Source: Lepidodermella squamata
Taxonomy: Eukaryota > Animalia > Gastrotricha
Assembly (NCBI GenBank): GCA_047495785.1
Contig: JBLDXI010000015.1
Location: 2,604,001 to 2,668,000 of the forward strand
Reading direction: 5' to 3'
DNA: 64,000 nt
Shown here: positions 10,735-64,000 of the stretch, piece after piece
Layout: every line of letters starts with the position of its first letter
Position numbering within the stretch: position 1 is the first letter of the stretch
The notes under the pieces: model-generated
Databases searched by the model: none
What the model was told of the DNA's origin: nothing
Seen by the model: only the letters and a program-made list of their open reading frames with translations
Made by a program: the position numbers and the translations under genes

Positions 10735-11066
10735 GAAGATGAATGCATGGGTTGAGAGTTTGCCGACGCTCCGCTAAACTAAAGCTCCTTTTTGATCTCA
10801 TTCAATATTCAAACTCGAACTCTGAAAGCCATTAGCTGCCAGCGTGGGGTTCAAGCTAAAAATAACCGAGACTTGAGTTCAAAAGCCTGGATGTTCGAAT
10901 GAGCTCGAATCAGTATTTATCAGGAAGTTATCGGTATGAACCAGATTGCATACGCCTACGCTTATCTTGAACCTTGTTCGTTATCTTGGCTCATGTAGAA
11001 AAAACCCCAATACACACCATGCATTAAATTCTCTTTATATCACAATTCAGCACGGACTGTTTCATC

Positions 11067-18034: not shown

Positions 18035-19294
18035 TTGTGATGAATTGGCGGTTCAGGCTATATTCACATGTCCTTTCTATACCTAGGTACAACTATTAGA
18101 AATTTTAGGTGTATATTGTTTAGGATTGTGCTGTTATAGGTATACGCGTATTGTTTAGCTCAGTGTGAAGTTAACGTAATATAAATCCTGCTTACATATA
18201 CCGTATATACACGGATCGTTAAAGTACTCGAGTTCTGACTGAATGGTTTGTCATTGTTTACTCACGCTAATGCGTCGCGCGAATAAAATACTAATTTTGA
18301 GAATATGTCTCGAGCAAATAAATAATTATTTGATTATTCCAAAAAAACTGGGGGAAGTTAAACATACTTCTTTCTCCGGTCGTCTGAATAGTAACCGAGA
18401 ATCCTATACTATAAGAGATGTCATGCTAATATTAAGGAATAGGAACTATTTTTCCCTAATTTTCGAGAGCCAAATTTTGAAAAAAATCCTAATTTAAATT
18501 GAACCTAACTATAAAATGAATAGATAATTTAATGATTTATACAAATATTAAAATTAAAAATATTCTGTTTTCCTAAGAGTAGTCTAATATATAATTACAG
18601 AAAAACAAGATTTAGGAAGTATAAGTTGAGAGCTAATTATTCTGATCTTATTCATGAAAATATATATAAAAAACTTGACGAAATGGGAATAAAAAATGTA
18701 GTCCAATCAGGTAAAATACCAAAAGTTACCGAACCATTGACAATAGGGATTTTTCAGAAATTCCCCAGTGAAATTGCTGATAAAGAATGATCCAAATTAG
18801 AGAAATTTTTGGATAAAAAATGGTTAGAAAAAATGAGAAGAAAGATGCACCGACCTGATCATATAAGTCTCTTTTTATGACCTTGCCTACTTCAGCATGA
18901 AATAAAGAGTGGTCGAGCTCTCAAAAAGCGCAATAATATTCTACCAAGTTATATATCGCAGCAGAATACCGATGCTGAGTGACCTCAGCAGACCTTAGGT
19001 CACATTATTCATTTTCTGACGCTGCTGTTATTAAAACACTGCGGTGAAAAAATTCGACGAAATTCCCAAACGAAAATTTTAATTTTAAGCTGCTTAGCTG
19101 TTCCGCGTCTCATTTAGTCAAAAAATCGAGGAATTTAATTACAAAAAATTTAGGCAATCATATCTATCGGCATTACAAGGACATTTTATCTGTAGTAACT
19201 TTACAAAAAATCAGCACGGTTTTACAAAATGAAAAAAAACAGGGACGTGAGCACATCTCAATTTTCAGTTGTTTAGGTGTTACATTATTCAATA

Positions 19295-23723: not shown

Positions 23724-23867
23724 TTAAAAATTATTAACAACTTGATTTACCGTAAACAAATGTACAGTGCTCGCAGTTTTTTGCGTTCGTTCAGTCCGGG
23801 CTGAAAAAAATACACTCCTCGTGGTAACAAATTTCATTTACGTGGTTTTCATGTCGACAGACCAGCT

Positions 23868-24203: not shown

Positions 24204-25173
24204 GTGTATGAATTCTATAGTGAAGGAAGCATCTTAAACAGAATTTACGCCTAATTTAGAGATTATTTATTTTGAATTACCTATGCTGATCAATCGTTGC
24301 AACCTTGGCAGGTTTTGAAAAGTGGTTTTAGGCCCATTGAAAATTCCAAAATTTGGTCCCGCTAAAAGGAGGAGGGCCGGTTAGCAGGTAAAATGCGCAA
24401 TCCGCCCAAGGTGAGAAAGAGCTGAAACTAATTTTAGAAATTACAGAATAATCAAAAAGATGGATAGAAAAAAGTCCGAGAGCGATAGGATGCTCAGGTA
24501 GCAATTGAAAATTCTGCGAAGTTAATACTATTTGGCGTTGCTCACAAGAACGCGTACAAATAACTCTGGTCACATGACCGCGCGAGATTCAAAACCTATC
24601 AAGGTTCGAAGTTTAAAACGCGATTTCCTGCGACAAAAGTGTCGAACAAAACCAAATTAAAATATCAGTATTAGTATTTGATATTAATTTTAATAATAAT
24701 TTTGAATTAAAAAATTAGGTGAAAAACTAGCGAAAATCGGAATTTTTTTATGCGGAACACGGCGATCGGTTTTTCAATTTTTCTTGACGGATTTAGATTC
24801 CTAGCTAAATTTCGCGTCGTTTGATGTAAAAATGTTGTAGGTTCGAGGATGTCTTGACACTAAATTTTAGCCGCAAAGTTAGTCGCAATGTGAAATTTCT
24901 GACGCTGCCATTTAAAAAGATTGCGGTGAAAAAATTCCCAGTCAAAATTTTTATTTATATCTTGTTCCAGTTTTGCGTCTCCTAGAGACAATAAATTGAG
25001 TAATTTCAATATGAACAAAAGATATATCTATCGGCAATAAGGACGTTTGAAGACTCGTTTTGTCTATTGCAAATTTACAAAAAAATCAGCACGATTTTAT
25101 AAAATGGAAAAACAGGAAAGTGAGCACATGAAAAATGTTGATCTCATTTGTTCAGTTTGTTTTTTTTTAAATA

Positions 25174-34100: not shown

Positions 34101-36258
34101 TTTAATTAAAATTTTCCAAAAAATTTAATTTGAAAAAATTAATTAGTTGGCCTAATTGGGTTTTTTTCATAAAATAAAATTAATTATACCCAAAATTTCA
34201 AAAAATAATATACTTACAGTTTTTTACTCGACCCCGGAACATTGAAAGTCGCCTTATAGAAGCCTTCGAACGTGTCCTTTAAACTGCCGCTGAAAATTAT
34301 GTCAATAAAAATGACGCGATCCGCTTTCAATTTCGATGACAGCTCGATGACGTAGTAATGGTACGGCTGGAAAGCGAATTTTTCCTTGATTTTCAGCGAC
34401 TCACCGTTGTTGTCGCTGTACTTGATATGAACCGTCGAAATGTTCAACCGATTTGCGTGTAGAATGACGTAATAGGTCGGGCTTTCAACTCTCGCCTCGA
34501 TTGAAACTTTTCCGGTGAAATGAGAGTCGGAATCTGTGTAGAAGTACGGCTTCATTTCGAGGGTGTAATGTACCGGAATAATATCGCTGGGCAGGCGGTA
34601 GTTGGTCCATGGCTTCGATGGTTCGTAGATGACTGATCGCTTGCTAGGATGGATGTCGTGTTCGTTTTTAGTCAGTTCGAACCGAGCATTGGTTGATGAT
34701 GGTTGATCACTGCATTTCGAGGGCCGCGAGGTCAGGCCGGTCGCAAGTCCAACAACCAAGAGCAACAAAGCAACTCCTATAAAAAAAATCGTAATAATTT
34801 CATCTATTAAAGGGCCAAATTTCGAAACCACGCAAAATTTCAATCAATTAACCTGTAGGAGTAACAAAGTACGCACCAATGACCCTAATGACCTAGATAT
34901 GTTATTGACAAACTTTAATGCTGACGGCGTAGAATCATAAAAAAGTTCATGGAATAAATTTATACGAATTCATACACCTTGGCCGGAAATCCTGCTTTTC
35001 AAACCTCTCGTGTCAAAAGACAAAAAAATCCCCATTAAACTATCTATCAATGGATCGAACTATCGATTCTATGGTAGTAAAAGTGTTCCGGAGCAAGTGG
35101 ACTAAAGTGACAGAAGCGTGGGATAATTTTGCCGCATGGCTTTTTCCCTTTTCTTGCTACTTTGTAGCCTGGCAAAATTTTTGAAAATATTCGGCAAATG
35201 CTTATAGCACTTCGGCCAAGTGTCCCAATTCCGGCAGGTGGCCGAAGTTAGGTCGCAGCGGCCTAATTTAGGAAGCGGCCGAAATAATTAGGGATTTCTA
35301 CTCTACGTTACCGATTTGAACTTGTCATGTAAAAGATGTCATCGAGGGAAATCGTTTTGTGAAAATCGAACGCCCCAGAACTTCTCAATATAAATTCTGT
35401 ATTTTCCGATTATTTTCTAATTTTTAACATGGCTATGTAGCAAAGTAAGGTAAATCAAAGAAGTGGCCGAATTTAGGGCTTCATCTATTTAATTTGATTT
35501 TAAAAATTTATTTTAGAAATAATCATCAAATTCGAGTTCATTAATTAAGAAATAACTACAGAATATTTGACCCTACAAAATTAAAATTAATCGAATTGAT
35601 TTTTCAAATGGATATTAATTAAGGTCACGGCTATCTGCACCCACCTAATATCCTATTAATAGAAGAAAAAAAGGACAACCCCAAACTAACTCTAAAAGTT
35701 TGAGATTTAGCCACAAAACGAGCTAGAGTTATAGATATGTTAAAAAATTAATTTAACTCAACAATAAAATCGTGAATTTTCAGAAGAATTTATTGATACT
35801 ACGCGTACTTATAAGTATTTATAATTTCACCTACCAACAATGGTGGACAGAACAATCAAATAGCTGACAGGTACTTTCTGGCTGAGAAATTCAATCATGT
35901 GGTTGTACGCGCTCGTTTTACTCTCGTTCGGATCGCCGCGCGGGTCATTCGAAACCACCTGTTGCATTTTTGTCGGCGCACTCGGCGCCGCAATTTTAGC
36001 CGGCGCTGATTGCATGCGTTTCGCCTTGGTGGCACTGCTGCTGCTGCTGCCACCATTTTTCGACGACTTTGAACTGCCAGCCTCAAGATTATTGACATCA
36101 GGGTTCTCCTCGTCGACTGGGCGCTGAGGGCGCTGAGGCGATTCATCTTCGAAGTAACCGCGAAAATCGTTGAAATATTGGCCATCATGTGTTATTTCAT
36201 CGACGTTGTTTGTTAGATTGACCTCAGACAAGGCCCCGCCTTGTGATATATTGGCCAT
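25174..36258 (-). CDS. M1 family aminopeptidase, copy B (tandem paralog with four enlarged introns)
   Basis: Exon-by-exon match to copy A (MANISQGGALSEVNL..., SAMENWGL, HELAHMWFGNLVT, ...TPVRC*); same intron positions. Confidence 0.92.
26500..28230 (+). mobile_element. Degenerate MULE/SWIM-type transposase fragments inside an aminopeptidase B intron
   Basis: 'STNNAIEAINEVIKRDFT' and 'VFAIDATF' resemble MULE transposase motifs. RGRGRG-rich tandem repeat of about 60 bp at about 27890-28020. Many stops; absent from the equivalent copy A intron. Confidence 0.55.
29680..30700 (+). mobile_element. Degenerate TE-like coding relic (CXC-like Cys cluster, possible decayed SWIM finger) in an aminopeptidase B intron
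   Basis: 'ACNCIPSHLASSNCGCRRSNSKCNDACSCNG'; downstream 'FK*SRSDFQKGHHSLGM'. The equivalent intron in copy A is only about 55 nt. Confidence 0.4.
32100..34010 (+). other. Unidentified GC-richer insert with a Pro/Ala/Thr low-complexity segment (33040-33386) in an aminopeptidase B intron
   Basis: Coding-like composition, broken frames, TTTTTCAG acceptor before the PAT-rich segment; absent from copy A. Confidence 0.35.
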
Positions 36259-37197
36259 AAAAAAATTATTAACAACTTGATTTATAGTATAAAAACGTTC
36301 TAGAAACAAATTTCAAATTTAAAAGGAAATTAAATTTTAATAAATTTAAAAATAAAATAAAAATAGACATGTAATAAAATTGAGTGCTGGAAAAGAATAT
36401 ATGGCCTAAATTAGGTAATAAATTCCATTGAGACTTTATTTATGGGGTTTTACGTCAACAGACGGATTTCCGCGCCCAAAAATGGTAATTTTGCGCCTAT
36501 GAAACGGAGGCTGAATGTTACGCATAGTTGCATGTTGCATATTATGGCTGATGAAAACGGCAGCAACGCCGTCAATAATGCCAACATGTTATAACAATAA
36601 TTCTATTACGGCTTTTCAGCCGTGGAAAGCAGAAATAATTTTCACATTATGAATCGAGTGTGGATTTACTGTTTAAATTTTAGTTGACTGATTTTTACGA
36701 CTCGTGCTGTAAAATCATGCGCTAATCGCGTGTCACTTGACTCAGCTGTTGAAGCAGGCCTTTTATTGGAGCAAGAAATATTGAGCTAATAGACAGGTGG
36801 CGATTTCATCAATCTACTGCCAGTTCGATGAGCACACACAGATAAAACCAGCAGTTATCTACTGCCATTGATTATTCTGAAATTGAACCAGATTCGAGTT
36901 ATATTTCGATTTGCTGGAATTTGTATCTGCATTCTGATAATTGACGCAAACTTATTGAATGATTTATTCCTGATTTTCTGGAAAATTTTCAAAATTAAAT
37001 ATTGTTCGAACTTCACAGTGTATAAAACTTGAAGACCGATCGCATATAGGATTTTATTGCGTGGTTGGAAAAATCCGGATCTCGCTTCAAAAATGCAAAC
37101 CACGAAAAATTCTCCAATACTTTTTACCGGTTTTAACCTGTTTCAAGAGCAAGTCTCCTACACAAAAACAGCAAAAATCACAAAAAATCACAGCAAA

Positions 37198-40946: not shown

Positions 40947-41331
40947 TCGCGGTTTCTTCACACTTTGGAGGGCTGAAAGCCGGCCGCAAGACTGGAACCT
41001 TGTTTAATATATATCTGTGGATTTATAGCCCCGAAATTTACCCTATTAATAATAATAAATAACCTCGCTTTTGCTTTCCTAAAATACACCATATAATTAA
41101 TTTTTACTTTTATTTTTATGCTAGCTCTTCCGCTTATCCGATATTTTATCCTAATAAAAGAGATAAAATATGAATAATGATCAATTTTTAACACAATTAT
41201 TCACGAGTCTTATTTACCCTTTGGCCGTGACTTGTCAATTTATCAATGAACGCTCTGCATTTATTTTTCGATTTTTTGTTTATATTTCAGCCTCCATCGT
41301 TGATCGCGTGCTGTCAGCGTAAACAGTGATT

Positions 41332-42265
41332 CATTCGCTAGTTTTTATTAAATTTTGACTTTCGCTAGCAAAAACTATCGAGCAAGTTTTCATAATTTTA
41401 CTGGCGTTTTTTCATTGAAATTTACGATAAATGCTTGGCGGGTAAGTTTAAAGGTCGCTTATCAACTGACATATTAGGGTCAAGTGCGCGTCGAAGTGCC
41501 GCACTAAGCCGCATTGACCCACGCAATTAAATTGTGTGCCAATGGGCGGAGCTTACGACGTGATGACGCAATGATTCATACCCGGTCTTACCAGTGTGCA
41601 TACGCAAATTAGCGACCCGGCTGGCAGTGCGGGCAGTCCAAGACCCCGGCAAAATTTTTTTTTAAAAAAAGTATCGCTTCTCGGCCTTTTTGGCTATGAT
41701 CAAAGTGTAGTATCTGTTCTTTGTAGTTTAATATCTACAACGGCCTCCATGTGGGGCCTACGATATTAGCCCTATTTTTGGCTAGCCGTGCGGGAGCAGC
41801 CAGCTTGCTGGACCCCGTCCACGAGTCGGCCCGGTATTGCAGTACCTCCGGGATTCGGCTCACCCCCTGAAACATGGGGAATGAAACTAAAAATAAAACA
41901 CTTTTAGGCCTATGAGGTGTAAATTTAATAATTGCGTTTTTAAAAGCAGCGGGACGATAGACATCACTTTAAGACGGTCTCTCCATTACCAAGGAGTGGG
42001 ACAAGGCGTCACATTTTATTCGCGCATTTGACACTTTTTGTGCGCGAGAGAAGCGCATCATCGGCGTGCGCGCAGCCAGGCGTAACGCCTTAAAAAGCGC
42101 GCGCTCACAGCGTGAAAAACAAATAGCCTAGAGTTTTTATAATAATTATGAAACATCGTCCATTGACAATGTTAACACGCGGACACTGATACACCTACAC
42201 ATCTCGTGAGAGTGCTCGATAGTTTTTGCTAGCGAAAGTCAAAATTTAATAAAAACTAGCGAATG
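41332..42265. repeat. Perfect 53-bp inverted repeat pair (41332-41384, 42213-42265) enclosing the U2 gene
   Basis: CATTCGCTAGTTTTTATTAAATTTTGACTTTCGCTAGCAAAAACTATCGAGCA and its exact reverse complement. Confidence 0.92.
41673..41866 (+). ncRNA. U2: U2 spliceosomal snRNA
   Basis: ATCGCTTCTCGGCCTTTTTGGCT...GATCAAAGTGTAGTATCTGTTCTT (branch-site pairing GTAGTA), stem IIa TTGTAG-TTTAATAT-CTACAA, Sm site ATTTTTG, stem-loop IV with TATTGCAGTA. The 3' end is approximate. Confidence 0.97.
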
Positions 42266-42458
42266 CAGCAATTTTTATCGGCGAAAAGAATAAGAGGCAC
42301 ACAATTGAAACACGTTTCAGCACGAGCGCGGGAAAAGATTCATCACAATGCCAAAGTAGTAACCGTTATGCATAATGAGCAACCTTAATTTTAATTTTTT
42401 TTTTCAATTTTTTTTATAATTTTTTTTATTGAAATAATGCAATATTTTAGGAAACAAA

Positions 42459-45400
42459 ATGAGGGATTTAGTCACAAATTTATCAATTTTTATTGTGTTA
42501 TTATACTCAATCGACTCGATCGCCGAAGAGACTGAGGATTATTACGATACGGATCAACCCGGCGCTGCTCCGGCACCTGTAGGCGGAGGCCCTATTACGG
42601 GTGATAATTACGGAATGGGTGACTACGGCGAGACTGAAGTCTCTGAACCTTCGTCCTTCCTCAACATTGGCGCGCCTTGTAACCCGGACAACGACGACTG
42701 CGGTGCTAATATGGAATGCCGTAAGGTGACCTACTGTCCAGGTGAGGAGCCGACGTGTCAGTGCGCCGCCGGTTGGGCGGAAGATAAATCGGGGAAAACG
42801 TGCCGCAAACTGGTCGAACTCGGCCAGGCGTGTTTAGGCACCGATTTGCAATGCGCGGCTGAGAATTCGTTCTGCAACGCAACGCTGAACAAGTGCCAGT
42901 GCCGGCCGGACTACAAGCCGGGGCCGAATGGCAACGACTGCGTTTGGACGTGGAAGACGCTGTTTTATGGCCAGACGTGTCGCAAAACTATCCAGTGCCA
43001 CTACAACATGTCCTGTGATAACTTTGTCTGTTCTTGCCCTCCTGGATCTCGAGGTATAAATGAAAATTGATGATAATTATTTTTTCGTAAATTTCATAAC
43101 CTGGTATCAAACGCTAGCTGTTCTACTTTTCAGATGATTTAAAAAATGAATAGGCCGCGTCAGCAAAGGGATGACGAGGCTTGATACTGAAAATAATGAC
43201 GCATAAACAACGCTTTGAAATTTATTTGGATTTTTTTTAATTAATCCTGGAATTTCGAATAATGGAAAGGCATTTTTATCTTTTAACATTATTCCAAAAA
43301 ATTGAGGATTTTAATTTAATTTCAATTTTTAATTCAACATTTATGTGGTCAGACTTTTCAGCGGTGACACTTCAGCAAATAAGGGTCAAATCAGCAGTGA
43401 CATTTCATCAGTGACGCACCTTGTCAGTAAACATTTCATAAAAATCACATTTTAGTATTAATTTAAATAATTCTTGTAGACAAGTGAGCAGTGACATTTC
43501 AGCAGAGACAGTCCCCCTGCTGAATACGGCTGAAATTCTGTTGATGAAATGTCCCCGCTGAAATGTCACTGCGCAAATGTCACCGAAATAAAGATAATAA
43601 ATTTGGAAAAATAGAGGATAAATTATCAAAAATCACTGCTGACTTGTCACTGATGATTTGTCACTGCACAAATGTCGCAGCTCAACTGTCACTGCTCATT
43701 TGACCCTCATTTGCTGAAATGTCACTGCTGAAAAGTCGTTAACCCAAAATTTAATGTTCGCAAGTAAACTCAAGTGAAAAAATTGGGTCCCACCGGGTAA
43801 AATACCAAATAATACCGAACCGATTACCATCGGGTTTTCCTGGTTTTCTTCGGTAAATTCTTCATTTCTTTGGTCAAATCGCGGATAAAGACGCGGATAG
43901 AGACAGGTTTAATTTCACAGAATAAGTTAAAAGCTATGAACCTAAAGCATTTAGTTGCAAAATCAAAATATGGTTGCCCAAATTTTGGGACACGCTGTGA
44001 ATCACACAAAAAATTGCCAACATTTCGGTATATTACCTTTTAGCCCTAATATTCTTTTAAAAGGAGCTTGAATTAAAATGAAAAAGAAATAACCAACGTA
44101 ATCTAAATTCCTTAGTTTCGATTAAATCCATTTCTGAATAATATTTTTACCTTTCCTTCCTATAAATTAAATAAAAAACTGGTTATCAAACATATCCTAT
44201 AAATTAATTGTGATTATTTTCAATTTTTCAATTTTTAGTGGACACCAAAAACAACGCTCAATGCATGATCAGTAAGTGGATTTTTTTCAATTTTTCTCCT
44301 CGATCGATAAAATTTTCAATTCAGATGGCCTAGACGGAAGTTGTACAAGCGACGAGCATTGTTTCCGGCGAAATTCCGTCTGCATCTTAGGCAAATGTTC
44401 ATGCGAAGCCGGCTACTCAGCAATGTCCCTTCGCTTCGGCTCGGTCAGCGCCCCGGTGCAGGAAGTCTGCGTCGCCGCCAAAGTTCAACGCCGCCGCGTT
44501 GGCGAAACCTGCTCAGTCGCCTATCCGTTCGACCAGGGTGTCTGCATCCAAGGCCTCGTTTGCTCAACGCAATGCTCAAACGCCAGCCCGAACCCGATTT
44601 GTGTCAACCCTAGAGACAACAAAGGCCTAACCACGACTAAAGCTCCGCCCCCTAAAGTTCGAGTGCCAATCTACGGCGATAGGTGTACCTCGAGTTCAGA
44701 ATGCGTGACTACAGACGGTTCTTTGACTTGCAAACGGCCGATGCCAGCGGTTTGTAAGCCCGGTCAGCAGGCCAACCCGGGCCAACAGGGTGTCTGCGGG
44801 TGCTCTGATGGGTTCTACCTAAGCGGGGTCAACAAATGCTCTAGGAAACCAGCCGGTGTCTACCTGGGCCAGTCTTGCTCGATTTACCTGAAAAACGACA
44901 TAACCGGTAATTGCCAGGCCGATGGGTCGGTGTGCGTCGGCGGGATGTGCATATGCAAATTAGGCTATAAACCAGGCCCTCGGGGTGACGATTGCGTTTC
45001 GAATTGGAAGACCCAGTTCCACGGCGAGGAGTGCCACGATTCCATCCAGTGCCACTACAACATGTTATGCATCAACGGGACTTGCTCTTGTATCGGCGTT
45101 GGGCTACCGGCTAAACCGATTTCTCAAGAGGGCGCCATAGTCGAGTGCACCCGGGTGAACGCGGGTGACAGGTGCGCTGGGGAAAACGATTGCTCCGGGG
45201 TGGCTAACGGGTTCTGTTCGAAATTTTCGCAGCGTTGCGAATGTAAAGAAGGCTACGTATCAACAACCTTCCACCTTGGCTCGCCCGATGACGTAACAAC
45301 CCGTTGTTTGCCTAAAGAATTAAGGTTGAGAGATGAGGGCGAGGAGTGTACCGTGGGGCCGTCGCTTGATGACACCCTGTCGCGATTGGCGCCTAATTTT

Positions 45401-48122: not shown

Positions 48123-48907
48123 CATTTCAAAGTAACACGAATCTCGTCTCGAAACTATATCACATCGTACATTTCAGCGAAAAGTTTAAAAACTAATTTT
48201 GTGAAAAACTGCATTTACGCAGATTACGATTTTTCTTAAACGTTGATGACATACTCCATTAGCGTAATTGGGACATTGTAAAGTAATTAATAAAATCTAG
48301 TTCTATGTTTAATCATTAAAATTGCTGGAAGCTCTTAGCTAAATTCAGATAATATCCCATTGAATGAAATATCAGCAGGAAGTACCTAATGATGAGGCAA
48401 ATCATCGCACCCACACGCCGACGGTGGGGACTACTTTGAGGAAATGAACGGGCTAATTATTGCAACCACTCAGACGGAGGGTGACAGAAAAAGCGCAGTT
48501 TTTCACTCGAGCAGTTTCACAGCAGCTAGGCAGTTGAATACTCTGTCAATGCTCACAGCAGCAATTTTGTTGAATTTCATTTTGGCAAATCATCCGGATG
48601 CCCAACTTGTAATTTACAGCATTTTCGCAGTTTTGATCTCCGATACGGCGTTTGTAGCTACGCATCTGCCGGATATTTTGGCATCAAAAGCGAATACTAT
48701 CGAAATTTCTATTGCGGAGAAGTAATTGAGATGTAGACTGTTGTTAAACAGATTTTAATGTCAAAAGATGAATTAAAAGGTGATTACTGAGATACTGAGT
48801 ACCAATTTTGTACCTTGGATATCATCACTTATATTACTGAGATAATTGTAGAGCAGAAATCACTGGGATAAATAATAGTTGTCAGCCTTCAAAATGGAAA
48901 TAGAAAA

Positions 48908-50723
48908 TTATCCGCTAATTGTTTGTTGGCTGCACGTTGGCAAAGCTACATCGTATTTGTTCATGGCGATGCATTTGACCTTGCCGGTAACGCCAGCTGG
49001 GAATTTCTTGCCAGCATCACAAGCGCAAGTGAACGATTCGCCGACATTGACAAAGTCATCTTCGTTTTCACGACCATCAACCTCGCAATATCCGCCCGAG
49101 ATTTCACTCGGGAAAGCGCAGACGGGCCTTGCGGTGGTCGAGCTGAAGGTGCACGATGGCCTGTTGCCATCCCACTGGTTCATGCCCTTGCAGGTCAGGG
49201 TGACAGTTGCACCGTTCTGTCCATTGGTCAGGTACCCTACGTCACAGCCACAAATAGCCTTCTCCCCGACGTCAAAGTTGGTAGCGCCATCCTTCGCTGC
49301 TGATTCGCAGTAGCCATTAACCAGAGTGTCCAAAGCAGACAGCGTGCAGATGGGTTTTAGGGTAGTGGTGATCTTCACGCACTGAGGCAGCACGCCGGAG
49401 AATGTCCTGCTAGCTAGACACTTGAGAACTCGATCTCCTGTGAGCATGTAATCATCTTCATCGTAGCAAGCACATGAAACCTAAGATTGAGGACATGGAG
49501 ATTTTATGGAGATTATAAGCAGAATCATTACCGAGCGTCCGATGTCGACATCGTTATCGTCGTCGCCTTCTTCGGCGTGGCAGACACCTCTGACAACCGT
49601 CGGAGCTTTGCCGCAGCCGGCGGCTCGGGTGGTTGTGACAATTCTTGTGCAAGTTGGATATTTGGACCAGGCGGAATTGGTCTGGCAAGTAATCGTGGGG
49701 TTTCCAGACATTTGGAAACCAGGATTGCACTGAAAGTAAACAACAATTTTGACTTCAGAACATCGTCATCTCGTAAGATTACTGTGAATGTAACGGCCTC
49801 TCCGATTTTAAAGATCTGCTTTCCGTCGCTACCACCGATACAATTGCTACCATCGCAGCCAGTATTAGGAACGTCTTTCGGCCTTGGGCATGTAGGAGCT
49901 GGGCTGGTTGTGCCTTCAAATATGCATCTGGGAACGTTGATGAATCTGAGTATACAAATTGGGTTATAACTTAACTTGCCATTTAACTTGACGAAAAATA
50001 CCTGTCATTTCCGATGCATCTAACCCTTGCGCTCACTGGCCATAGTGCATCACGGCGTTTTCGACCAGATAAAGTTGAGGTGGTACTCAGGAAGAATCCG
50101 GACTTGCACGCGCAAGAAACTTCCTCATTCAAGGCGATGCGTGGATTCGTAGTGTTGATCCTTGTGCAGTTACCGTTTGCGATCAAAGGTAATTTAGCGC
50201 AGCCTGGGGATAGGGTGGTGGTGGTGACAATAGGTTTGCAGGTGGGCGGGTTCAGCCAAGTGTTCCACTCTTTACACGTCGGATTCAGTACACCCGTAGA
50301 GCGCATGTAGCCGGTTTGACAGGAGCAGTTTGCTTGGTCTCGAACTCGAAAGTACTTTCCATTCAATTTGGCGCCAGTGCAAGAACCGTAAGCAATAGTT
50401 GGTGGCGAGCAGATCATCTCGCATGTTGGGCTCTGAGTCCATGTACCGTTGGCCTGGCATGTGACCTGAGTCGGACCAGTGAAAACCCAGCTGGAGTTGA
50501 TCGGCTTGTAATAGACAATAACATTAGGGTCGTAAAGTTGAAGGTCCTTGACTTCGCTAGTTTTAACGATGAACGACGCAGCGCTGGAATCAGCCCATGG
50601 TTTGGTTGAGCAATTGCCACAGTAGATGAAGGGTGGATTACCACACTGACGGCCATCGACAGAACTGAGGAAGAATAAGCAAGCAACGCCCAGAAGGGCA
50701 AAGGAGAGAGCAGCCTTTAACAT
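48908..50723 (-). CDS. Secreted multi-sushi (CCP) protein, copy 1 (4 exons)
   Basis: Signal peptide, repeated C..P...G.C...C.C..G(Y/F).....C...W....P.C units, TTTT linkers, RKRR site; ends QQTISG*. Confidence 0.85.
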
Positions 50724-52725
50724 TGTTTAGAAAAGGACGAAAACTGACTTGATGGCTTTGAAACCACCCCGACTCTTTTTATAAACAGCCCGAAAGCGGA
50801 CGCTAACGCACGAGGAAATACGCGTAGCGCTGAAGCGCGACTGTTAACAAGCCTGCAATATAAATGCAATAAATTTCGTATACCTACAGCTTCCTTATCG
50901 GCAAAACAGCGCGTGGGCAGAATGCCAGCACGACACAAAGACGTTCAACGTGACGACCATTTATCCGTGTAGCGGAGAGACCAGCGCGCATCCAGTCCTA
51001 ATTTCCTGTAGTCGAATGTCAAAACAAATATACATCCGCAAATATGTGGATCCAACACCCGGATATCCGGATATTTCCATTCCGGGTTTAACTTTGCTTA
51101 AAACAGTTATCATAGCATTCATGAATCCACCATGAACCAATGATTCAAACATTTCCACGAACTCTTTCGAGAAACTTCTATGAATCGTCGTATAAATAGC
51201 TCTAAGTCCATCCGAAGTCGAAAACGCAATTTCAGTACTCCGCTTTTCACGCTGGTCAAAATTTCTGAAAACCGTGGTGATTATCGTCAAATTCGTCAAC
51301 TTATCAATTTTCCAAAATGTGAGCATTTCAACCAAATTTGACAACGGCCTGTCTTGCGCGAACAGTTGTCTCACCTTTGGCGCTCGATTGCGGTCATGGC
51401 TTAGACCCGGCAATAGTGCAATAACTCCAATTGCATATACGCAAATACTCATGATTCATGATGTGCACGCAAAGCCAAGCATGAGTTAACAACGTGTTAA
51501 CAAGCCGCCATGGATCAGTATTTTGGTCTGGGTCCTGGGCGATCATGACGCATGACTCATTTCTCATGTCAGTAACCGCAAATTGCACAAGAAAAAACAT
51601 CAAATCTGCCTCGGAATACATACTTGAAGTTTCACGTGTTGCGTTAACTTCTGCAATTGTTGGGGTCATATTAGCTGAAGCCGTTCGATATAAGAATGGC
51701 ACTAATAAATGAAATAATGTGCTTTCACGCATAATACAATGTTATGGCGCGTGTTAAATGATAACTGGGTAACCCTGTATACGTACGAGCGTATATGAGC
51801 GTATACTTACAAACGAACAGCAGAACATGTACACACAACCAGGACCGCTCGTGCGTAAAGCATGTCGAACCGCATCCAAAAAAAGTTTCCTCAAACAAAA
51901 TGTCGTGCTGTTGACAAAATTATGCGACTCATCCCGCAATTATATCACTGATAAGGAAAACATCCTCAGTCAACATTTTATCACAAACATTACTCCAAAC
52001 CAGGGAAACTCCAGGCTCGTTTTTGCATAATGAGTTATTTTTATCATAGGGCATTTGATGGCTGCTGGTGTTGGAAACATCGATTGAAGAAGTGAGCATA
52101 TTTATGGGTTGCACAGAATAAGCAACATTTTTCTTGTACGATTGACCGCCGAAACCAATTGATGGGCGATGGGGTTCGTTGTGTAGCTTGTTACAGAAAT
52201 TCAAGAAATGCAAGCTTTTCGAAATTCTCACTCGCTTGCGGCCTTTATCGCCCGTGTTTTTTTTAAATGATTTTTGCGGCGATTAGGCTAACCAAGTGCG
52301 GTCTTTGTTCGAGCCGCGGCATTTACAACACTAAATAGGGTAATTTTATAAAATGATATTCAATCCCACATATTCGATCGATAGACGATTGCCTAGGTTT
52401 TATTCGGGATTCATGATTCGCACACATCATTCGAATTTCTAATAGATGAAGAAACGTTTGCAGATGCGTAAATCTTTGATCAGCTGAATTATAACAGAAG
52501 TAAAGCGATTGGTACTAACAAGGTACACTAAAGCTAACGATCGCTGATGATCATCAGGCCGCAATTACCGCTCTAAGCGATTTAGCACGAGTCGGATTCA
52601 AGTTATTACTAATAAAAAATGGGTTGTAAGTTGTTTTTTCCGTAACGTTCGATATGGTAGAAGCATAAGTGATACCATGTTACGGATTTGATCTGACTTC
52701 TATCAGCTAAATATTCAACTCAAAA

Positions 52726-55700
52726 ATGCATATCATGTATTGGATTTTATTTTTTCTTACCTGTTCAATTCACAACATTTCAGCATTTGAAAATCAAGCT
52801 GAAAATCATAATAAGCATCATCAACCCCACAGCTTCTTGGACATATTCGACGTATAAAAGCTACAAATATTATCACTATAACCATGGTATATAATCGTAG
52901 TATATTTTAATAGGCGAGTCATGGTTTCGGCCGTTCTCCGAATTCGGGCGTTGTTTCGAACCCTGCAAAACATCGCGCTAGCCAGCACGGTTCCACCTCG
53001 CCTCTTTCCTCCTATCCTTACTTCCGATCCCTTTACCCGGACTTCGATTTCGACCGAGCGAATTCGAGCGGCGAAAATCCTGGTGTCACTTTGTATTCGC
53101 GATTGATGCAAAATTACAGCGTTGACGTGTTGCCAGTGAATCAAACGCACGAAGCTGTTCAAGTTCGATTGCAACTTAAGTTGATTCAGTTCGTAGACGT
53201 CGATGAGAAGAACCAGATTTTGACCACTAATGTTTGGCTAAGGCATGAATGGTTTGATTCAGGACTGACATGGAACCCGGATGACTATGGGGGTATCGAA
53301 CAGCTCAACATTCCAGCTGATGAAATTTGGTAAAAATAAAATATAGAAAAATTCGACTAATACAGGAATTAAGGAAAATTTAAATTTAGGACGAGATTTA
53401 AAAAAAATAAAAAATTAAAAAAATTGACATATTTTCAGCTAATTTCTAAATCTTTCAGGCTGCCAGATACGTGCCTGTACAACAAGTAAGATGCAATACC
53501 CAATTTATTTGAAAAATTAAAATTTGTTTAAAAAGCGCTGATGGCGATTATCAGGATAGCTCTTTTTTCTGCAGCAGATTTCTTTTTTCAGCAGCAGAAT
53601 ACTTTTTTCTGCAGCAGATACTTTTCCCAGCAGCAGATACTTTTTTCTGCAGCAGATTATACTTTTTTCAGCAGCAAATTTCAAAATATCGATTTTCATT
53701 AAAAAAATGTAACCATTTTGATAGACACGCTTTCCTGAGTTAAAATATGTATACATATTTCGTTATAAGCAGCAACCGCGCCTAAAATGATTTATTTCCA
53801 TATACTCGTCATTACTCTTATTAGATTTAACATCAGAGAATGGAAATTCAGTTAATTCAGTCTGTTCTATCAAGAAAAATTCAGCGGCCTAGGGCCATGT
53901 AGTGTGCACCCGTGTAAAACAAGGATATAGTCCTTATTCGCCTTGACGAACGTCTACGGCGTTAAAATCCTCGTCTTTACTAAAAACAGCAAGATTGAAA
54001 TCTTTGAAATCAAGATTGAAACGCCGTAGACGTTCGTCAAGGCGAATAGGGCCTCATTACCTGCCCAATAGCCTGGGCGCCTCAGTTTCTGTACTGCAAT
54101 AGAATCGTTCTTGGTGTAACCACGCCCAGGAAACTCCTTCTCAGCAACACCGGCCATAAACGGCATCAAATCATCTTCATTTGCCATCATCCACTCCACT
54201 ACTTGCTGCCGCATAGTGATATGTGTGATCCTCCTGCGAGCCATTCATCAAAAGGGCAAACGCCCAAAGTGCGCAGCTATGTATATGTATACATATTTGA
54301 ACTCAGGAAAGCGTGTCTATCAAAATGGTTACATTATTTTAATGAAAATCGATATTTTGAAATTTGCTGCTGAAAAAAGTATAATCTGCTGCAGAAAAAA
54401 GTATCTGCTGCTGGGAAAAGTATCTGCTGCTGAAAAAAGTATTCTGCTGCTGAAAAAAGAAATCTGCTGCTGAAAAAAGGTTTCTTCGATTATCAAATAA
54501 CGATTCAGACCAAAGTCGAAGTTCGCCATGATGGGTTAGTAATTTGGGAACCACCAGCCATCTACAAGTCCTTCTGCGCTATCGACGTCGAATTTTTCCC
54601 ATACGACAAGCAAAATTGCGAAATGAAGGTAAATTAACTAACAAATTCAATTTTTAGTAATTTTCAAAAAATTCTCAAGTTCGGACCTTGGACTGAGGAC
54701 ATTTCGAAGGTGGACTATCTATTGGTCGGCCCGGATGGCAACACGAGTGACCATCAAGAGATGGCCGTTGACCTAAAAGGCTTCTACGAATCAACCGAAT
54801 GGGACCTACTGCACGTTCACGGCACCCGGCGCCACTACATGTACCCATGTTGCGAGGAAAAATACGTCGATATCACCTACGAATTCAACATAAGGCGACG
54901 AACCCTATTCTACACAATCAACCTAATTATACCATGTATAATGATCACTTTTCTGACAATATTAGTGTTTTACCTACCTTCGGGTTCCAATCAGAAAATG
55001 GCCTTCTCAATTTCGACCCTACTCGCCCTGACTTGGTTTATTCTAGTTTTGTCTGATATAATTCCTCCAACTTCCTTAGTTCTACCTTTAATTGGCAAAT
55101 ATTTGATTTTTACGGAAATTTTAGTTTTACTATCGATTTGCTTATCAGTCCTTGTTTTGTACAGCCATTTTTGCCACCCTTTTTGTAAGCCAGTACCACA
55201 ATGGATCCGGTACGTTTTCCTCGAATTTCTGCCCCGATTTCTGTTTTTCGTCGCCGAAAATCATCTAAAAGACCCGGCAGATTCGATTTATTTCAAACCA
55301 GTGCCGAAAATTTCACCCTGGACGTACAAACGAGTTGAATCTAGGTCACCCAGTTTAGTCACCCTATCGCCATCACTGAAGAATTGTAGCGAAAATAGCT
55401 CGCCGAGAAAATCGTCGATCAAAAGTTCGGCTAAATCTAAGCGAAAACGGGTTAATTTCGAATCGGATTTACATCGAGCCATTCTGGAGGCTTTGCCAGC
55501 TTTCCAGGAGTATTATCATCTGCCCGAGGTGCGTCAAGGCCTGATTTACGTTCAATACATAGCCGATCGCTTTGAGGCCGCCAATGAAGAGGCGCGGATC
55601 AAAAATGAATGGCAGGCTGTTTCGCGAGTTATGGATCGGTTTTTTCTTTTTGTTTTCACGGCTGTTTCGATTATTGGAACGCTGGTTATTCTGCTCTATG

Positions 55701-55795
55701 CGCCGCCCTTGTACGACCAAACCCCGGCTGTTCGAGCAACTGTTCAGGACGAACTGACGGAGGACTTTCCTCACCTTAATCACATCTCGCCATAA
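52726..55795 (+). CDS. Nicotinic acetylcholine receptor alpha-type subunit (Cys-loop channel), interrupted by an insertion in exon 4
   Basis: Signal exon 52726-52851; '[16 protein letters not shown]', '[14 protein letters not shown]', Cys-loop '[15 protein letters not shown]', loop C 'YPCCEEKY', '[15 protein letters not shown]', TM1-TM4. Confidence 0.92.
53554..54486. mobile_element. Non-autonomous Mutator-like element: TIRs of about 200 bp, 9-bp TSD CGATTATCA, internal OTU-like fragment
   Basis: TSD at 53545-53553 and 54487-54495. TIRs at about 53563-53757 / 54285-54478 are built of TTTTTTC(A/T)GCAGCAGA repeats. Minus-strand '[22 protein letters not shown]...[21 protein letters not shown]'. 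Confidence 0.88.
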
Positions 55796-56070
55796 CCCAA
55801 TATTTTCAAAATTATTTTCTATTCGTTTGCGCAATAGTTGTTCGAATGAAACCACAACGGATTCAGCTTTTCTCTGGTTCCTACGGTTCCGCAGTGTTTT
55901 CGGTATACAAACCAAGATGAATGTGTGAAATTTTAACGCTGTTGAAGTAAAGAAGCTGAATATTTGCACGTCTAAAAATAAAGTTGAAGCACTAAATTTT
56001 CCGATTCTTTGCGAGTATGGTTATTTTTTTTTCTGTTTGTCTATAATGATCAATATCGACCCATTGAAAA

Positions 56071-58335
56071 TCAGCCGCTGATTGCTTGCTGACTGCACGT
56101 TGGCAAAGCAACATCGTATTTGTTCATGGCGATGTATTTGACCTTGCCGGTAACGCCGGATGGGAATCTCATACCAGCATCGCAAGCGCAGGTAAACGAT
56201 TTGCCGACATTGACAAAGTCATCTTCGTTTTCACCATCGTTCAGTGCTGACATGCAGTAGCCATTGGCCAGAGTGTCCAGAGCAGCCAGTGTGCAGATAG
56301 GTTTCAGGGTTGTCGTGATCTTCACGCACTGAGGCAGCACACCCGAAAATGTCCTGGTAGATTGACACTTGAGAACTCGATCTCCTGTGAACAGGTAGTA
56401 ATCTTCATCGTTGCAGGCGCAGGACACCTTAGATTAAAGACGGAATTTAGAATTTGCGCTGTAACGAGAAATTTGGAACTACCGTGCGTCCGATGTCGAC
56501 ATCGTTATCGTCGTCGCCTTCCTCTGCGTGGCAGACACCTCCGGCAACCGTTGGAGCTTTGCCACAGCCGGCAGCACGAGTGGTTGTGGCGATCCTGATG
56601 CAGGTTGGAGATTTGGACCAGGCCACTCGCTGAACGAGTTCAGCATTTAATTGCGGAACACGAAAATATGCATTTTTTCAGGAACATTTCGTTTGCATGG
56701 CAGTGTATATCTTTCATTTCCCTTAAGAAATGAGGACTAAGATGAAAGAGCAGTCGGACAAGATTGAACAATTCGAGAACCGCCGTTGTAACCTCGATTA
56801 TGAGAACAGGCGCCTTCAGTCTGCTATGTCGCAGAGAAAGAGCGGGCATTGGTACGCTTTTGCGCTCCACGTTTGCCATTCACGTAACACCGCTCTTCTG
56901 ATTTCTACTGACAGAAATGGCGCGAGGAACTGTTAGGCAAGTCAATCAAACTGTTCTATGACCTCACTGAAAACTCTTATCTCTGAAAACTGAAAACGCG
57001 ATGGAATCAGTGTCATTTTTTCAAAGTATTTAAACAAATTTCATATGACACAAATTGCATATGCTTTGTTCTGCCTGCTGCGATGCTTCTTATCATTCGG
57101 TCTTTTTTACGTTATATTCCACGATATTTGAGATATGTAACAATTCATATGTTGAAGAGTAAAGGATACATTAAATTCTATGGACGCAGTTATCAAAAAG
57201 ATCCGTCGACAAGATGCAAGATTTCATGTCTTCTGTTTATTTTTACAAATTTTGTATCCAAAAGGAGGAATGCGAGAATAGTAGGATACGAGTTTCGAAT
57301 TTCAAGATGTGCCAATTGCCATGTCATTTCCATGGGTATTTAACTTAGCTTGATTTTTACTCAGTTTTCAAACACAATTTTTCGACTAACTCAGCAAAGC
57401 CTCGGAAAAATCAGTAATTACCGACGTTTTATACTTAATAGTTAGAAAGGTCGTTTTGTAATAACTGATTTGAAACTCAGTAAGGCCTAGATTTTTTTAC
57501 CCGTGTACTACACCTGTGGTTTTTTTTACCCGTGGTGTAGGAGCAAGAGTGGTTGTAGTTATAGGCTTGCAGGTGGGAACGTTAGAGTATCTAGACAATA
57601 GAAGTATACGTTATCTTCAAAATTGTTCAAGACAGTCACATACTTGTCATATCCGATGCATCTAGCCCTTGCGGTGGTTTCAAAATTTAAATATGAAGCA
57701 GATGCGTAGAATCCGGAATTGCATGTGCAAGAAACTTCCTCATACAGGGCGATGCGTGGATTAGTGGTAGTGATCCTTGTGCAGGTACCGTATGCCATCA
57801 AAGGCAATTTTGCACAGCCCGGGGATAGGGTGGTGGTAGTGGCAATAGGCTTGCAGCTTGGCGGGTTCAGCCAAGTGTTCCACTCTTTACAAGTCGGGTT
57901 CATCACACCTCTTGAGCGCATGTAGCCGGCTTGGCAGGTGCAGTTTGCTTGGTCTCGAACTCGAAAGTATCTCCCACCCACTTTGGCGCCAATGCATGAA
58001 CCGTAAGCAATAGTTAGTGGAGAGCAGATCATCTCACAGGTTGGGCTCTGGGTCCAGGTACCGTTGGCCTGGCATGTGACCTGAATCGGACCAGTGAAAA
58101 CCCAGCTGGAGTTGATCGGGTTGTAATAGACAACAGTATAAAGGTCGTAGAGTCGAAGATCCTTGACTTCGCTCGTTTTGACAATGTATGACACAGCGCT
58201 AGCATCCGCCCATGGCTTGGTTGAGACGTTGCCACAGTAGACGAATGGCGGATTGCCACACTGACGGCCATCGACAGAACTGAGGAAGAAGCAAGCAACG
58301 CCCAGAAGGGCAAAGGAGAGAGCAGCCTTTAACAT
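56071..58335 (-). pseudogene. Sushi/CCP protein copy 2, disrupted
   Basis: Exon 1 intact. Exon 2 breaks at about 57535 into unrelated sequence and homology resumes at about 56621. One CCP module is deleted in the last exon, and there is a Cys-to-Tyr change (VKYIAM). Confidence 0.7.
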
Positions 58336-58469
58336 TGTGTAGAAAAAGGTTTCTATACAGCTCCCTTTATATACAGCCGGAATCAGGATGGAAGCGGACG
58401 CTATTGCTCGGAATCCTATGCATTCTAAAAAATAGATATTATGAATAAAATGAATCACTCCATATACTT

Positions 58470-59296: not shown

Positions 59297-60182
59297 TATT
59301 TTCATTCATTTGCATGAAGTTACAACACCGCAAGGCTAAATAGTATTTGACAGGAAACAAGTGAAAAGTGGGGCTTGACGAAACTTTGGGAACGTGAGAA
59401 TTTTAGGCCACTTTCAAGATCAGTTGATGAGGAGTCGAAAGTTATCAATAAGATGGTGACATTCAGCATTCAGCAGGGTTGCAGAGAAAGGGGGCTGCAA
59501 AGTTTACGAGCGAAAAACGGCAATTCCAACTGGAGCGCGCTTATAGCAAATGAGCTTTTAATTGCAATTAATAAAAAACTGAATAAGAGCACCTTGGAAT
59601 CCAAGAATCGTCCCAATTTGAGAGCAAACTTTTTGTGATTTGCTGGAAGATACAGAGAGTTCGCCCAGCTCCAATTTTCACTTGTTACACTGATCATTTG
59701 TAAGCTGAAAGATCAAAAACCCAACTTAAAGATGATTATTATAACCCACGATTTATAATCGAACCCATAAAATTCCCTATCTGGACCTTGGAAGCCGATC
59801 CATCTAGAGAAGTAATGAAATGTTGTGTAAAATGTGCACAGGATAAAAGTTGAATAAAACGGTATATAAAAATAATGTTTTCCCGGTCTTCAGACAGGTA
59901 GTCTCAAAAATTGCTTTCAAGCTCAATTTATTCTCCATTATTTCATATTCCTTTTTTGCGTCCGAATCCTAGTGGCGATAAATTCCCAATGGCGAATAAC
60001 TTCTTTCAATATGCGGTTGAATTCGCGATTTCGCTTCAGCAACTTCATCAAAAACTTGTCGATCAACAGTGACCTCTCCGAACTCCGAACGTTAATGTTT
60101 ATTCTAACCAGATAACCGGAAGAGCTGAAATCACCAGGGGATGAATGCGATTACTGAAAATGTCAAGATTTCCCATTACAAA

Positions 60183-62037
60183 TTAGCCGCTGACTGCTTG
60201 CTGACTGCACGTTGGCAAAGCAACATCGTATTTGTTCATGGCGATGCATCTGACCCTGCCGTTAACGCCGGCTGGGAATTTCTTACCTGCATCGCAAGCG
60301 CACGTGAAAGATTCGCCGACATTGACGAAATCATCTTCGTTTTCACGACCATCAACCTCGCAATATCCGCCTGAGATTTCACTGGGGAAAGCGCAGACAG
60401 GTCTTGCGGTGGTCGAGCTGAAAGTGCACGATGGCCTGCTACCATCCCACGTGTTCATGCCTTTGCAAGTCAGGGTGACAGTTGCACCTTTTTGTCCATT
60501 GGTTAGGTACCCTGCGTCACAGCCGCAAATAGCCTTATCTCCGACTTCAAAGTCGGTCGCGCCGTCATTCGCGGCTGACTGGCAGTAGCCATTAACCAGA
60601 GTGTCCAAAGCAGACAGCGTGCAAATAGGTTTCAGGGTGGTGGTTATCTTCATGCACTTTGGCAGGACGCCTGAAAATGTCCTGGTAGATTGGCACTTGA
60701 GAACGCGATCTCCTATGAACCAGTAGTCATCTTCATCGTTGCAGGCGCAGGAAACCTAAGATTGAGGACATATTTAGATTTTACGCAGATTAAAAGTAGA
60801 TAGATTACCGTGCGTCCGATGTCGACATCGTTATCGTCGTCGCCCTCCTCGGCGTGGCAAACACCTCCGACAACCGTTGGAGCTCTGCCGCAGCCGGCAG
60901 CACGGGTGGTCGTGGCTATCCTGACGCAGGTTGGATATTTGGACCAGGAGCCATTGGTCTGGCAAGTAATCGTGGGGTTTCCGGACATTTGGAAGCCAGG
61001 ATTGCACTGTTGTTGATTTAGGATTATGAAAAGCGAACAATTTCAGCTCATCAGCTTACTGTAAATGTAACAGCCTCTCCGATTTTGAAGATCTGTTTGT
61101 TGTCAGCGCCTCCGATACAGTTGCTTCCATCGCAGCCAGTATTAGGAACGTCCTTTGGTCTTACGCATACAGGCGCTACTGGGGTCGTTATTATTGGTTT
61201 GCAAGTGGGGACGTTGACGAATCTAAGGGGTAGAAATTTACGATATATTTAAAATTTCTCAAGAATATCAAAATACCTGTCATTTCCGATGCATCTAACC
61301 CTTACGCTCGTTGGCCATAATGCATCACGGCGTTTCCGGCCAGATAAAGTTGCAGTAGCAGCTATGTAGTATGCGGAATTGCACGAGCAAGAAACTTCCT
61401 CATTCAAAGCGATGCGTGGATTAGTGCTGGTATTGATCCTTGTACAGGTACCGTATGCCATCAAAGGCAATTTTGCACAGCCTGGGGATAGGGTGGTGGT
61501 AGTGGGGATAGGCTTGCAGGTGGGCGGGTTCAGCCAAGTGTTCCACTCTTTACACGTCGGATTCAGTACACCCGTAGAGCGCATGTAGCCGGCTTGACAG
61601 GAGCAGTTTGCTTGGTCTCGAACTCGGAAGTATATTGGAGGCGGTGCCCTAATGTTCATCCTGCAATTCATGTTCGCCGCCAATTTGGCACCAGTGCATG
61701 AACCGTAAGATAAAGTTGGTGCCAAACAGATCATCTCACAGGTTGGGCTCCGAGTCCAGGTACCGTTGGCCTGGCATGTGACCTGAATCGGACCCGTGAA
61801 AATCCAGCTGGAGTTGATCGGCTTGTAATAGACAATAGTGTTGGGGTCGTAGAGCTGAAGGTCCTTGACTTCGCTAGTTTTAACGATGAACGAAGCAGCG
61901 CTGGGATCACCACATGCCTTGGTTGAGCAGTTGCCGCAGAAGACGAAAGGCGGATTACCACACTGACGGCCATTGACAGAACTGAGGAAGAAGCAAGCAA
62001 CGCCCAGTAGGGCAAAGGTGAGAACAACCTTCAGCAT
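60183..62037 (-). CDS. Secreted multi-sushi (CCP) protein, copy 3 (4 exons)
   Basis: Colinear with copy 1 (MLKVVLTFALLGVACFF..., RKRR, ...QQAVSG*), with a short insertion in CCP2. Confidence 0.85.
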
Positions 62038-64000
62038 TTTTTGGAAAAGAACGAAAACTGACTGGATTCCGTTATATACAGCCAGAATCTGCGCGAAAGC
62101 GGACGTTATTGCTCAAAACCCTAAAAATAATGTCTAAAATGAATTACTCTATATAGTCAACAGCTACTTCTCTCCGCTTAAAACCACGGCGGCAGAACGC
62201 CAATGCACCATCGTGCCCGCTGCGGTTAAAACGTGGCGAGCTTTTTTTACCATATGAGCAGCGCTTTTTCGATCCCGTTTATTCGTTTGTTAAAATGTGG
62301 AAGGTCGTACATCCGCAATTACTGTATATCTACTAATTTTCGGTTTTAGAGATTTCGGACCTATACTATACATTTAATTTCTGTGGATTTGAATTCGGTT
62401 TGAGGGAAGTTCCTGAGAAAAAAATCGAGATTAATCAGTTGCAGCAGGCTGTGATCTTGGATCCTGGAGCTGCCAGGGAGGGAAATTTTGTTTGCTGTAT
62501 TTGCCAGCTGTATTTGCTGTATCCAACCAAAAACCGAGCGAAGCGAGAAAATTTTGAATTTTGAAGAATTAAAACTAAAACACGCCCCAAAACCTTTCAA
62601 AATTAAGGGGGGATGATTCGCCCATCCCCTGAAAGCCGCACACTGACTTTCAGTGTTTCAGTTTCGCGTTCTATAACGCTATGAGTAGGTACCGTGGCGT
62701 GGGGTAACTTGGCCGGAAATACGGTTTTTGGATCCTATTACGTCTCCGGTAACTTGTTTCGCTCTAAATTTTATACCAAAAAATCTCCGTTCAATTCTCA
62801 ATTGATTGGTAGAATCGACGACCGATAAAATCAATCGATTCTGTGGAGGTTGAATAACATTTCATCACATTCCATGTATGCAAGGTGGGTACATAGCACA
62901 TGGAGACAGGGCACAATCACAACCAGTGGCAGGCGATTGGTCAATGTGGCAAAGCCCACCAGCCGGAGCAGTGATCCGGCATGTACACTGGGATTAGGCA
63001 ATTGAGAGTGTCCGGCCAGGGTCCCTCACAGTGTTGTCGGCAGTGCCATGTCCGGAAAACAGCAAACAGTCAAGTGGTACCACCACGTCAAGGTTCCAGT
63101 GTATTATATTTGAATTCAGGAAAGCAAAATCGAAACGACCTTTATTATACAGGAGACAGGAGCCAATGGATTTTGTTGATAACAGTTTATGAAGTCAAAC
63201 GCAGATAGGCCATTAGGTAGAAAATGTTATCAAACCTGTAACCAGTTCTGAAAAAATTTCTGGACCAAATTTGGTACCTAAAAATCCGCCGTTTTCAAGG
63301 TTTGAATGACTCGACGCGCGGCTTGGCACCTGCAATCGATGCATAAATGCAATTGTAGCTTTTCAGCTTTTCCCCCCAGGACACTGAGTTAATCCCCTAC
63401 CATCGGGTGCCCATAGCGTTCCACCCTCTTAGCTGCGAGTGAGCACTCTCGTCTCATTTACGTCGCATCTAAGTTGCGTTTTTTATGGTGTCCGGAAAGC
63501 TATTGTTCGACGTTGTGATCAATTCTTCGAACACAGAAACACACAGAAACAACAATCCGCAACACAGAAATAACAATCAAGTAATTAGCCTCGAGCTGTC
63601 CGAGCTCGAGAGGCGGGCAGAGGTGCGTTTTTTATGGTGTCCGCGGGCTAATTGTGGCAATTAAGACCAGATGACACACATAACTTAGCTTATGCTTTTC
63701 AAAGCAATCGTTCAACTTTAAATTCAGAAATATTGAACTATGGATTTTTTGGCAAGTTTGGATTCAAAATAATCGTCAATTGACAGTTAAAATTGAGAAT
63801 TTTCGGTAATTTTCGAAAAATTTCAAAAAATCAATATTTCTCTCGATTTTCGCGAATCTTGCCAACAAAATGAAAAAGGCTTCGCCACGACGTTTGGCTA
63901 AAAATTGGCCGTATGGCACGTCGTGAGAAGTTAACGAGGGTCAGATGGCGCTTTGTAGTAAATTAATTACAACCATGTCTCGATTTGTCAAGGTCTAATC

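Follow-up and report, generated by a model that had tools for sequence, protein, structure and literature searches.

A non-autonomous terminal-inverted-repeat element splits exon 4 of a nicotinic acetylcholine receptor alpha gene in Lepidodermella squamata and probably disables that copy

In the 64-kb stretch of Lepidodermella squamata DNA analysed here (the window, to which all coordinates refer), a 933-nt element (53554–54486) splits exon 4 of a nicotinic acetylcholine receptor (nAChR) alpha gene between two copies of a 9-mer. Judging from the sequence, we consider it likely (probability about 0.7) that a young non-autonomous element with terminal inverted repeats (TIRs) disabled this one nAChR alpha copy, the loss being buffered by intact alleles or paralogues. 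As a broken copy, the insertion is an ordinary and well-documented kind of event, in which a young transposon is tolerated through intact copies.

With the element taken out, the receptor gene on the forward strand was modelled from six segments (52726–55795) encoding 611 amino acids with no internal stop. Exon 1 (52726–52851) opens with an ATG, has a start that looks signal-peptide-like by eye, and is followed directly by a GT donor. The ligand-binding domain begins in exon 2 (52914–53329; Pfam Neur_chan_LBD, E = 8.6e-23), and the 27-nt exon 3 (53459–53485) is collinear with homologues. Exon 4 consists of a part before the element (53536–53553), which includes the left 9-mer and whose protein reads (N)ADGDYQ, and a part after it and the right 9-mer (54496–54628), which encodes the Cys-loop (Pfam, E = 1.9e-15, and homologue alignment). 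Exon 5 (54680–55795) carries the vicinal cysteines of loop C, the transmembrane region (Pfam Neur_chan_memb, E = 1.5e-53) and the stop codon. The host gene is identified as an nAChR alpha subunit by the two Pfam domains, the Cys-loop and the loop C vicinal cysteines, and its best named matches are lophotrochozoan and arthropod nAChRs at 34–53% identity. All four introns have a GT-AG solution, with A-rich AAG acceptors in two of them. The segment interrupted by the element has a fixed length: the spacing from YNNAD to WxPPA is constant in all 103 pattern-matched nAChR homologues (120 were counted, of which 17 were unmatched by the pattern), and the segment is ungapped against two human subunits, those of the two solved-structure alignments shown.

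The initial annotation, made from the sequence alone, had described an exon 4 that reads NADGDYQ and then runs into 933 bp of element, with a duplicated target, a read-through stop at about 53741 and all other exons intact. All of this was borne out. Exon 4 starts at 53536, the 9-bp left target-site duplication (TSD; 53545–53553) is repeated perfectly on the right (54487–54495), and reading through from exon 4 ends at a forward-strand TGA at 53741–53743. A 9-mer duplication by chance has a probability of 4.6e-6 per register, or ~0.004 over 900 register choices.

The TIR arms of the element (53562–53758 and 54283–54479) are each 197 nt long, differ at 4 positions (98% identity) and contain six ~20-nt subrepeats apiece. 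On the forward strand, the left arm provides seven T-rich acceptor-like sites, its subrepeats containing T-rich CAG sites of this kind, and the right arm terminates in an AG (54478–54479); no AATAAA was found on this strand of the element. The outermost 8 and 7 nt of the two ends are unlike each other, and the element begins with GG. The family has one copy within the window. The letter at 54393 and that at its mirror position 53648 agree between the two arms and are absent from the major TIR contig of X1, the sequencing run described below, which suggests homogenisation between the arms or a subfamily.

X1, possibly drawn from the very sample that gave the window, behaves as DNA, because introns are covered; depth of an X1 contig is no copy number. 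The check for an empty site proposed in the initial annotation was run in this data set, and contigs with an uninterrupted exon 4 and a single 9-mer were found. A depth-77 contig links 53494 directly to 54487 with the intron flanks kept, and two others, at depths 77 and 66, have their start precisely at 54487, upstream of which exon 4 continues with one 9-mer. The single 9-mer settles that the repeat arose by target-site duplication, and uninterrupted versions of the gene exist. The filled left junction is crossed by a contig (53291–53582, depth 23.6) with no differences from the window, which extends just 29 nt into the element and so falls short of the 31 letters required for bridging; the filled right junction was not seen among the X1 contigs. 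The window's version of the gene is a minor one in X1, its contigs with no differences having depths of 23–26 (23.2 and 26.2), against 59–83 and above for diverged versions. The nearest empty version, which may be either allelic or paralogous, shows a single difference over the 219 nt of 54487–54705 and 16 over 205 nt further on, and its introns 2 and 3 are unalignable to those of the window copy.

The TIRs are represented in X1 by contigs at depth 430–500, compared with 23–26 for the window version of the gene. A second kind of interior lies behind this TIR in X1 (loose ends at 53741 and 54297), and a contig breaks off precisely at the 8 nt that form the left end of the element, as is expected if several flanks diverge there. 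The bin depth at 54485–54499 exceeds that of both exon contigs, which suggests that the right end is common to the family too. The element is a member of a dispersed multi-copy family. The mismatch between the outermost 8 and 7 nt is probably a trait of this family, as the X1 contigs suggest, and not decay of the window copy. The initial annotation had taken the diverged TIR ends as a hint of age; this reading of an old element was rejected on the X1 contig that stops at the left terminus. Three runs are recorded in all, none registered as RNA. X2, whose RNA status is a guess, has nothing at the insertion junction and contains a diverged 3' version of the gene (55392–55806, 26 differences) together with bits of the element interior, and X3 gave short AT-rich chance matches only; neither was counted as evidence.

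The X1 and X2 contigs (54487–54606 and 55191–55806) also contain at least two more diverged nAChR versions (with 20 differences over 120 nt, 8 over 55, and the 3' version that X2 also contains), which suggests a lineage-specific nAChR expansion. In exon 5, the entry to M2 (54980–55040) reads GSNQK where homologues have (D/E)SGEK, and LTWF where they have LTVF. As the GSNQK stretch is also present in the depth-83 version, it is a lineage trait. The glutamate missing from the M2 entry is presumably the residue governing cation selectivity, and its loss may have changed permeability.

Coding differences between the window and other versions are largely silent, 43 of the 49 listed being synonymous where 22% would be expected (p = 3e-22). 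These 49 comprise 37 of the 40 listed among 126 differences and 12 of a further 14, with five element-internal entries dropped, and they are unpolarised. As the differences are mostly synonymous and the arms differ at 4 of 197 positions, the insertion is probably young; the silent differences, together with the lack of any second lesion, the filled copy having no stop or frameshift elsewhere in its 611 codons, indicate that the copy was probably functional before the insertion. That the copy was already a pseudogene when the element landed is allowed by the redundant versions and the unpolarised differences, but the lack of other lesions and the excess of silent differences make it highly improbable, as does the odd M2-entry motif, which the version at depth 83 also has (all 7 differences from it in 54779–55020 are synonymous). 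We regard it as even less credible that the filled site is an artefact of assembly or amplification, or a rare somatic event. The filled version is minor in X1, its right-junction contig was not seen and it is in no second DNA data set; against this, transposition leaves just such a footprint, a perfect 9-bp duplication at the exact ends of the element, and the depth of the left-junction contig (23.6) matches that of the other contigs of the window version (23.2 and 26.2).

The initial annotation had posed a choice between knockout and transposon-driven intron gain, of which knockout is favoured and intron gain is weak; this either/or framing also misses the empty-site versions in X1 and a published route of hairpin-directed excision (accessible text of PMC12779559). 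On the intron-gain reading, spliceosomal removal, as in Introners, would yield a working receptor through the donors GC 53544, GA 53555 or GT 53709, all of which form in-frame, stop-free pairs. In the accessible text of Gozashti et al. 2022 (PMC9860276), Introners include non-autonomous TIR elements with a TSD in coding exons, as here, and in some families the donors are GC or GA and codons have been added or lost. Of the 11 registers that would remove the element exactly, none carries GT, GC or GA together with AG. Among 125 in-frame donor–acceptor pairs enumerated, 10 use GT (53709 or 53739). Joining these donors to AG 54479, which leaves the downstream exon whole, adds 57 or 67 amino acids, and joining the exon-3 donor 53486 to AG 54459 is in frame and canonical and replaces the NADG motif; the statement in the initial annotation that in-frame rescue requires a non-canonical donor therefore fails, as canonical routes exist, at a cost. 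Of the two non-canonical routes that it proposed, GC 53544 with AG 54479 is confirmed as in frame and stop-free with two amino acids added, and GA 53555 with a TTCAG acceptor is in frame with four lost, the acceptor ending at 54508 and not at 54509.

Every in-frame spliceosomal option alters the segment whose length is constant in 103 of 103 matched homologues, and the T removed by the −4 option is invariant among nAChR homologues. Removal with little or no coding change, as in Introners, comes no nearer than these +2 and −4 products, both from weak non-canonical donors: against the U1 consensus, GA 53555 matches at 6 of 9 positions, inside the host range of 4–7, and GC 53544 at only 4 of 9. 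Host introns fit GT-AG in 11 of 11 cases examined (4 in the receptor gene and 7 in the aminopeptidase genes described below); one of the 7 aminopeptidase junctions gave a better alignment with GC in place of GT, yet GT is what the paralogue uses at that position. AG 54479 is not implausible as an acceptor, given that AAG acceptors are tolerated in two of the four introns of this gene; in the predicted fold, however, it lies inside the stem together with both GT donors, and the seven T-rich acceptor-like sites of the left arm would pull in element sequence. At 933 nt the element also exceeds the 30–654 nt range of medians given for Introner families (accessible text of PMC9860276), and unlike them it offers no register for precise removal. 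Taken with its supporting points, intron gain leading to a working receptor is very unlikely.

In SOS splicing, a process independent of the spliceosome, exonic DNA transposons leave the mRNA through their base-paired inverted terminal repeats (ITRs), rarely with GU-AG (Zhao et al. 2025, PMC12779559). As described in the accessible text of that report, the process operates in worm and human cells, depends on AKAP17A, CAAP1 and RTCB, and is imprecise; it cleared Tc1 from 90–100% of C. elegans mRNAs, with some products in frame, and rescue of function is reported there in poorly conserved regions only. Folding of the element is predicted to give a stem of ~200 bp (−488.8 kcal/mol; z = −32 relative to 20 shuffled sequences), in which imperfect pairing would extend into both TSDs. 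By this prediction it is a strong candidate substrate, as base-pairing inverted repeats within an exon, which are all that such excision needs (PMC12779559), are present in the fold. The Tc1, Tc3 and Tc4 insertions in C. elegans exons are alike in being exonic, in having pairing ITRs and in offering no usable GU-AG at their ends, with ITRs of 54 nt in Tc1 against arms of 197 nt here; they differ in that the present site lies in a conserved domain, where the accessible text of the report gives no rescue (PMC12779559). Removal of exactly the stem (53562–54479) is in frame, but adds 8 amino acids to the length-invariant segment. Cuts placed up to 15 nt from the ends form 961 pairs, of which 303 keep the reading frame and just 11 give the wild-type protein. 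Given this, the imprecision of the process and the restriction of published rescue to poorly conserved regions, it is unlikely that excision through the paired TIRs yields enough in-frame, tolerated products to keep the copy working. Slimmer still is the chance that the hairpin is excised often enough inside the duplicated target to restore the wild-type receptor. Excision of this type may well happen and still leave a null copy.

The reading that we prefer, a copy disabled by a young insertion, can be put as a sequence of steps. A Mutator-type transposase acting in trans would have mobilised the element, which would have inserted by cut and paste into exon 4, likely recently, with duplication of the 9-bp target. 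Transcripts that retain the element would end their reading frame at 53741 and be expected to decay by nonsense-mediated decay. Removal at the RNA level, by cryptic splicing or directed by the hairpin, would mostly lead to frameshifts or to indels in the length-invariant ligand-binding segment. The filled copy would then give little or no working protein, and intact alleles or paralogues would compensate.

The initial annotation had called the element Mutator-like. This label fits the anatomy (a 9-bp TSD, long TIRs and a captured fragment), but it is putative, as no transposase was found in the 5 element ORFs scanned. TSDs of 8–9 bp are also a feature of the Merlin and Foldback types. Rehavkus is described as another transposon group with TSDs of 8–9 bp. 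Helitrons are not known to have long TIRs or TSDs; they resemble the present element in that a DNA transposon carries an OTU protease, and differ in their rolling-circle movement, as far as the sources describe them. The 9-bp TSD, single at the empty site, lies in the range of 8–11 bp given for Mutator-like elements (MULEs; accessible text of PMC6446971), and the TIRs are long (197 nt, 98%). As in Pack-MULEs, a captured non-transposase fragment, the relic of an OTU-type protease, lies between the TIRs. Pack-MULEs and non-autonomous MULEs share TSDs of 8–11 bp, TIRs of hundreds of bp and a non-transposase coding fragment (accessible text of PMC6446971 and PMC6431247); Pack-MULEs are described there from plants, whereas the present element has an animal host and carries an OTU core. 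An OTU fusion is mentioned for Medicago MULE transposases (PMC1702500, in part), and OTU domains occur in Ginger1 and Helitron/Helentron elements (PMC2836005 and PMC6431247, in part). Ginger1, a DNA transposon that carries OTU protease sequence and has TIRs of 40–270 bp, was excluded, since its reported 4-bp CCGG/CCGT TSD and TGTNR ends contrast with the 9-bp TSD and GG start found here. The closest parallel for the insertion itself is in Myzus persicae, where a MULE silences one allele of the voltage-gated sodium channel (Panini et al. 2021, PMC8201860). In the accessible text of that report, the two cases share long imperfect TIRs, an insertion site within the coding part of a gene for a neuronal ion channel, premature stops and an intact gene version alongside; the aphid case has in addition transposase homology, heterozygosity, silencing proven from RNA and a phenotype. 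A literature search, weak in that it was made without a species term, returned no title on the element or gene.

The OTU-type relic lies on the minus strand (53884–54278) in three collinear pieces (54278–54225, 54223–~54008 and 53946–53884) and was detected by Pfam, protein search and tblastn; the initial annotation had overlooked it. The minus-strand ORF 53954–54244 matches Pfam OTU at E = 0.0013 with 19.7 bits, under the cutoff of 23.3. A search against 1.84 billion representative proteins gave 5 matches, 4 of them small OTU proteins; one of the five, P0243, was rejected as a repeat-driven false match. By tblastn, the four OTU proteins align to the three collinear pieces, with E = 4e-17 for P0245. 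The Cys and His positions are kept, and the upstream D-G-N motif is absent at the TIR border; no single frame contains the whole D-G-x-C … H catalytic core, the relic spanning three frames. Four extra nucleotides near 54222 break the frame and are missing from the corresponding X1 contig, and an internal hairpin with 41-nt arms (53929–54054) interrupts it in the window copy. Loose ends of X1 contigs at 53932 and 54004 indicate that other copies arrange the hairpin region differently, and by eye such copies may keep the OTU frame open. A nested MITE at 53929–54054 was ruled out, since both of its arms code for one and the same stretch of OTU and the arrangement differs in other copies. Comparison of the OTU ORF with longer proteins gave 0 of 105 candidates, so that a parental gene was not found there; the cargo may come from a host gene or be the autonomous partner's own domain.

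The receptor gene is flanked by three copies of a gene for a secreted cysteine-rich repeat protein (48900–50750, 56060–58350 and 60180–62070, minus strand), which are 77–90% identical in DNA and sushi/CCP-like by eye, the middle copy being incomplete in alignments. Two tandem M1 aminopeptidase genes (19013–23763 and 24896–36298, minus strand) have named matches at ~27–48% identity. Three of their introns are homologous and differ in length, being short in one copy (228, 58 and 360 nt) and long in the other (2486, 2006 and 1923 nt), probably through insertions. Three inverted-repeat elements (6022–6408, 41320–42277 and 43352–43737) are unrelated to the family of the exon-4 element; the first, flanked by TATA on either side, has ends that match, and we take it to be a Tc1/mariner-type MITE. 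Two long single-exon ORFs on the minus strand (1058–3226 and 9628–10773) are, by eye and presumably, a class C GPCR-like protein and a gustatory-receptor-like 7TM protein, respectively.

The OTU cargo in an animal element with a 9-bp TSD and long TIRs is a small addition to transposon diversity. Were hairpin-directed excision to keep the filled copy working, a non-model invertebrate would offer a natural case of a coding exon that stays functional despite an insertion, here one from an animal family that resembles Pack-MULEs and has an OTU protease core, and the empty-site counterpart would serve as an internal control. As the filled and empty exons occur side by side and many silent SNPs tell them apart, RNA could separate decay, cryptic splicing and hairpin excision, and the locus offers a test case for transposon removal from mRNA outside worms and humans.
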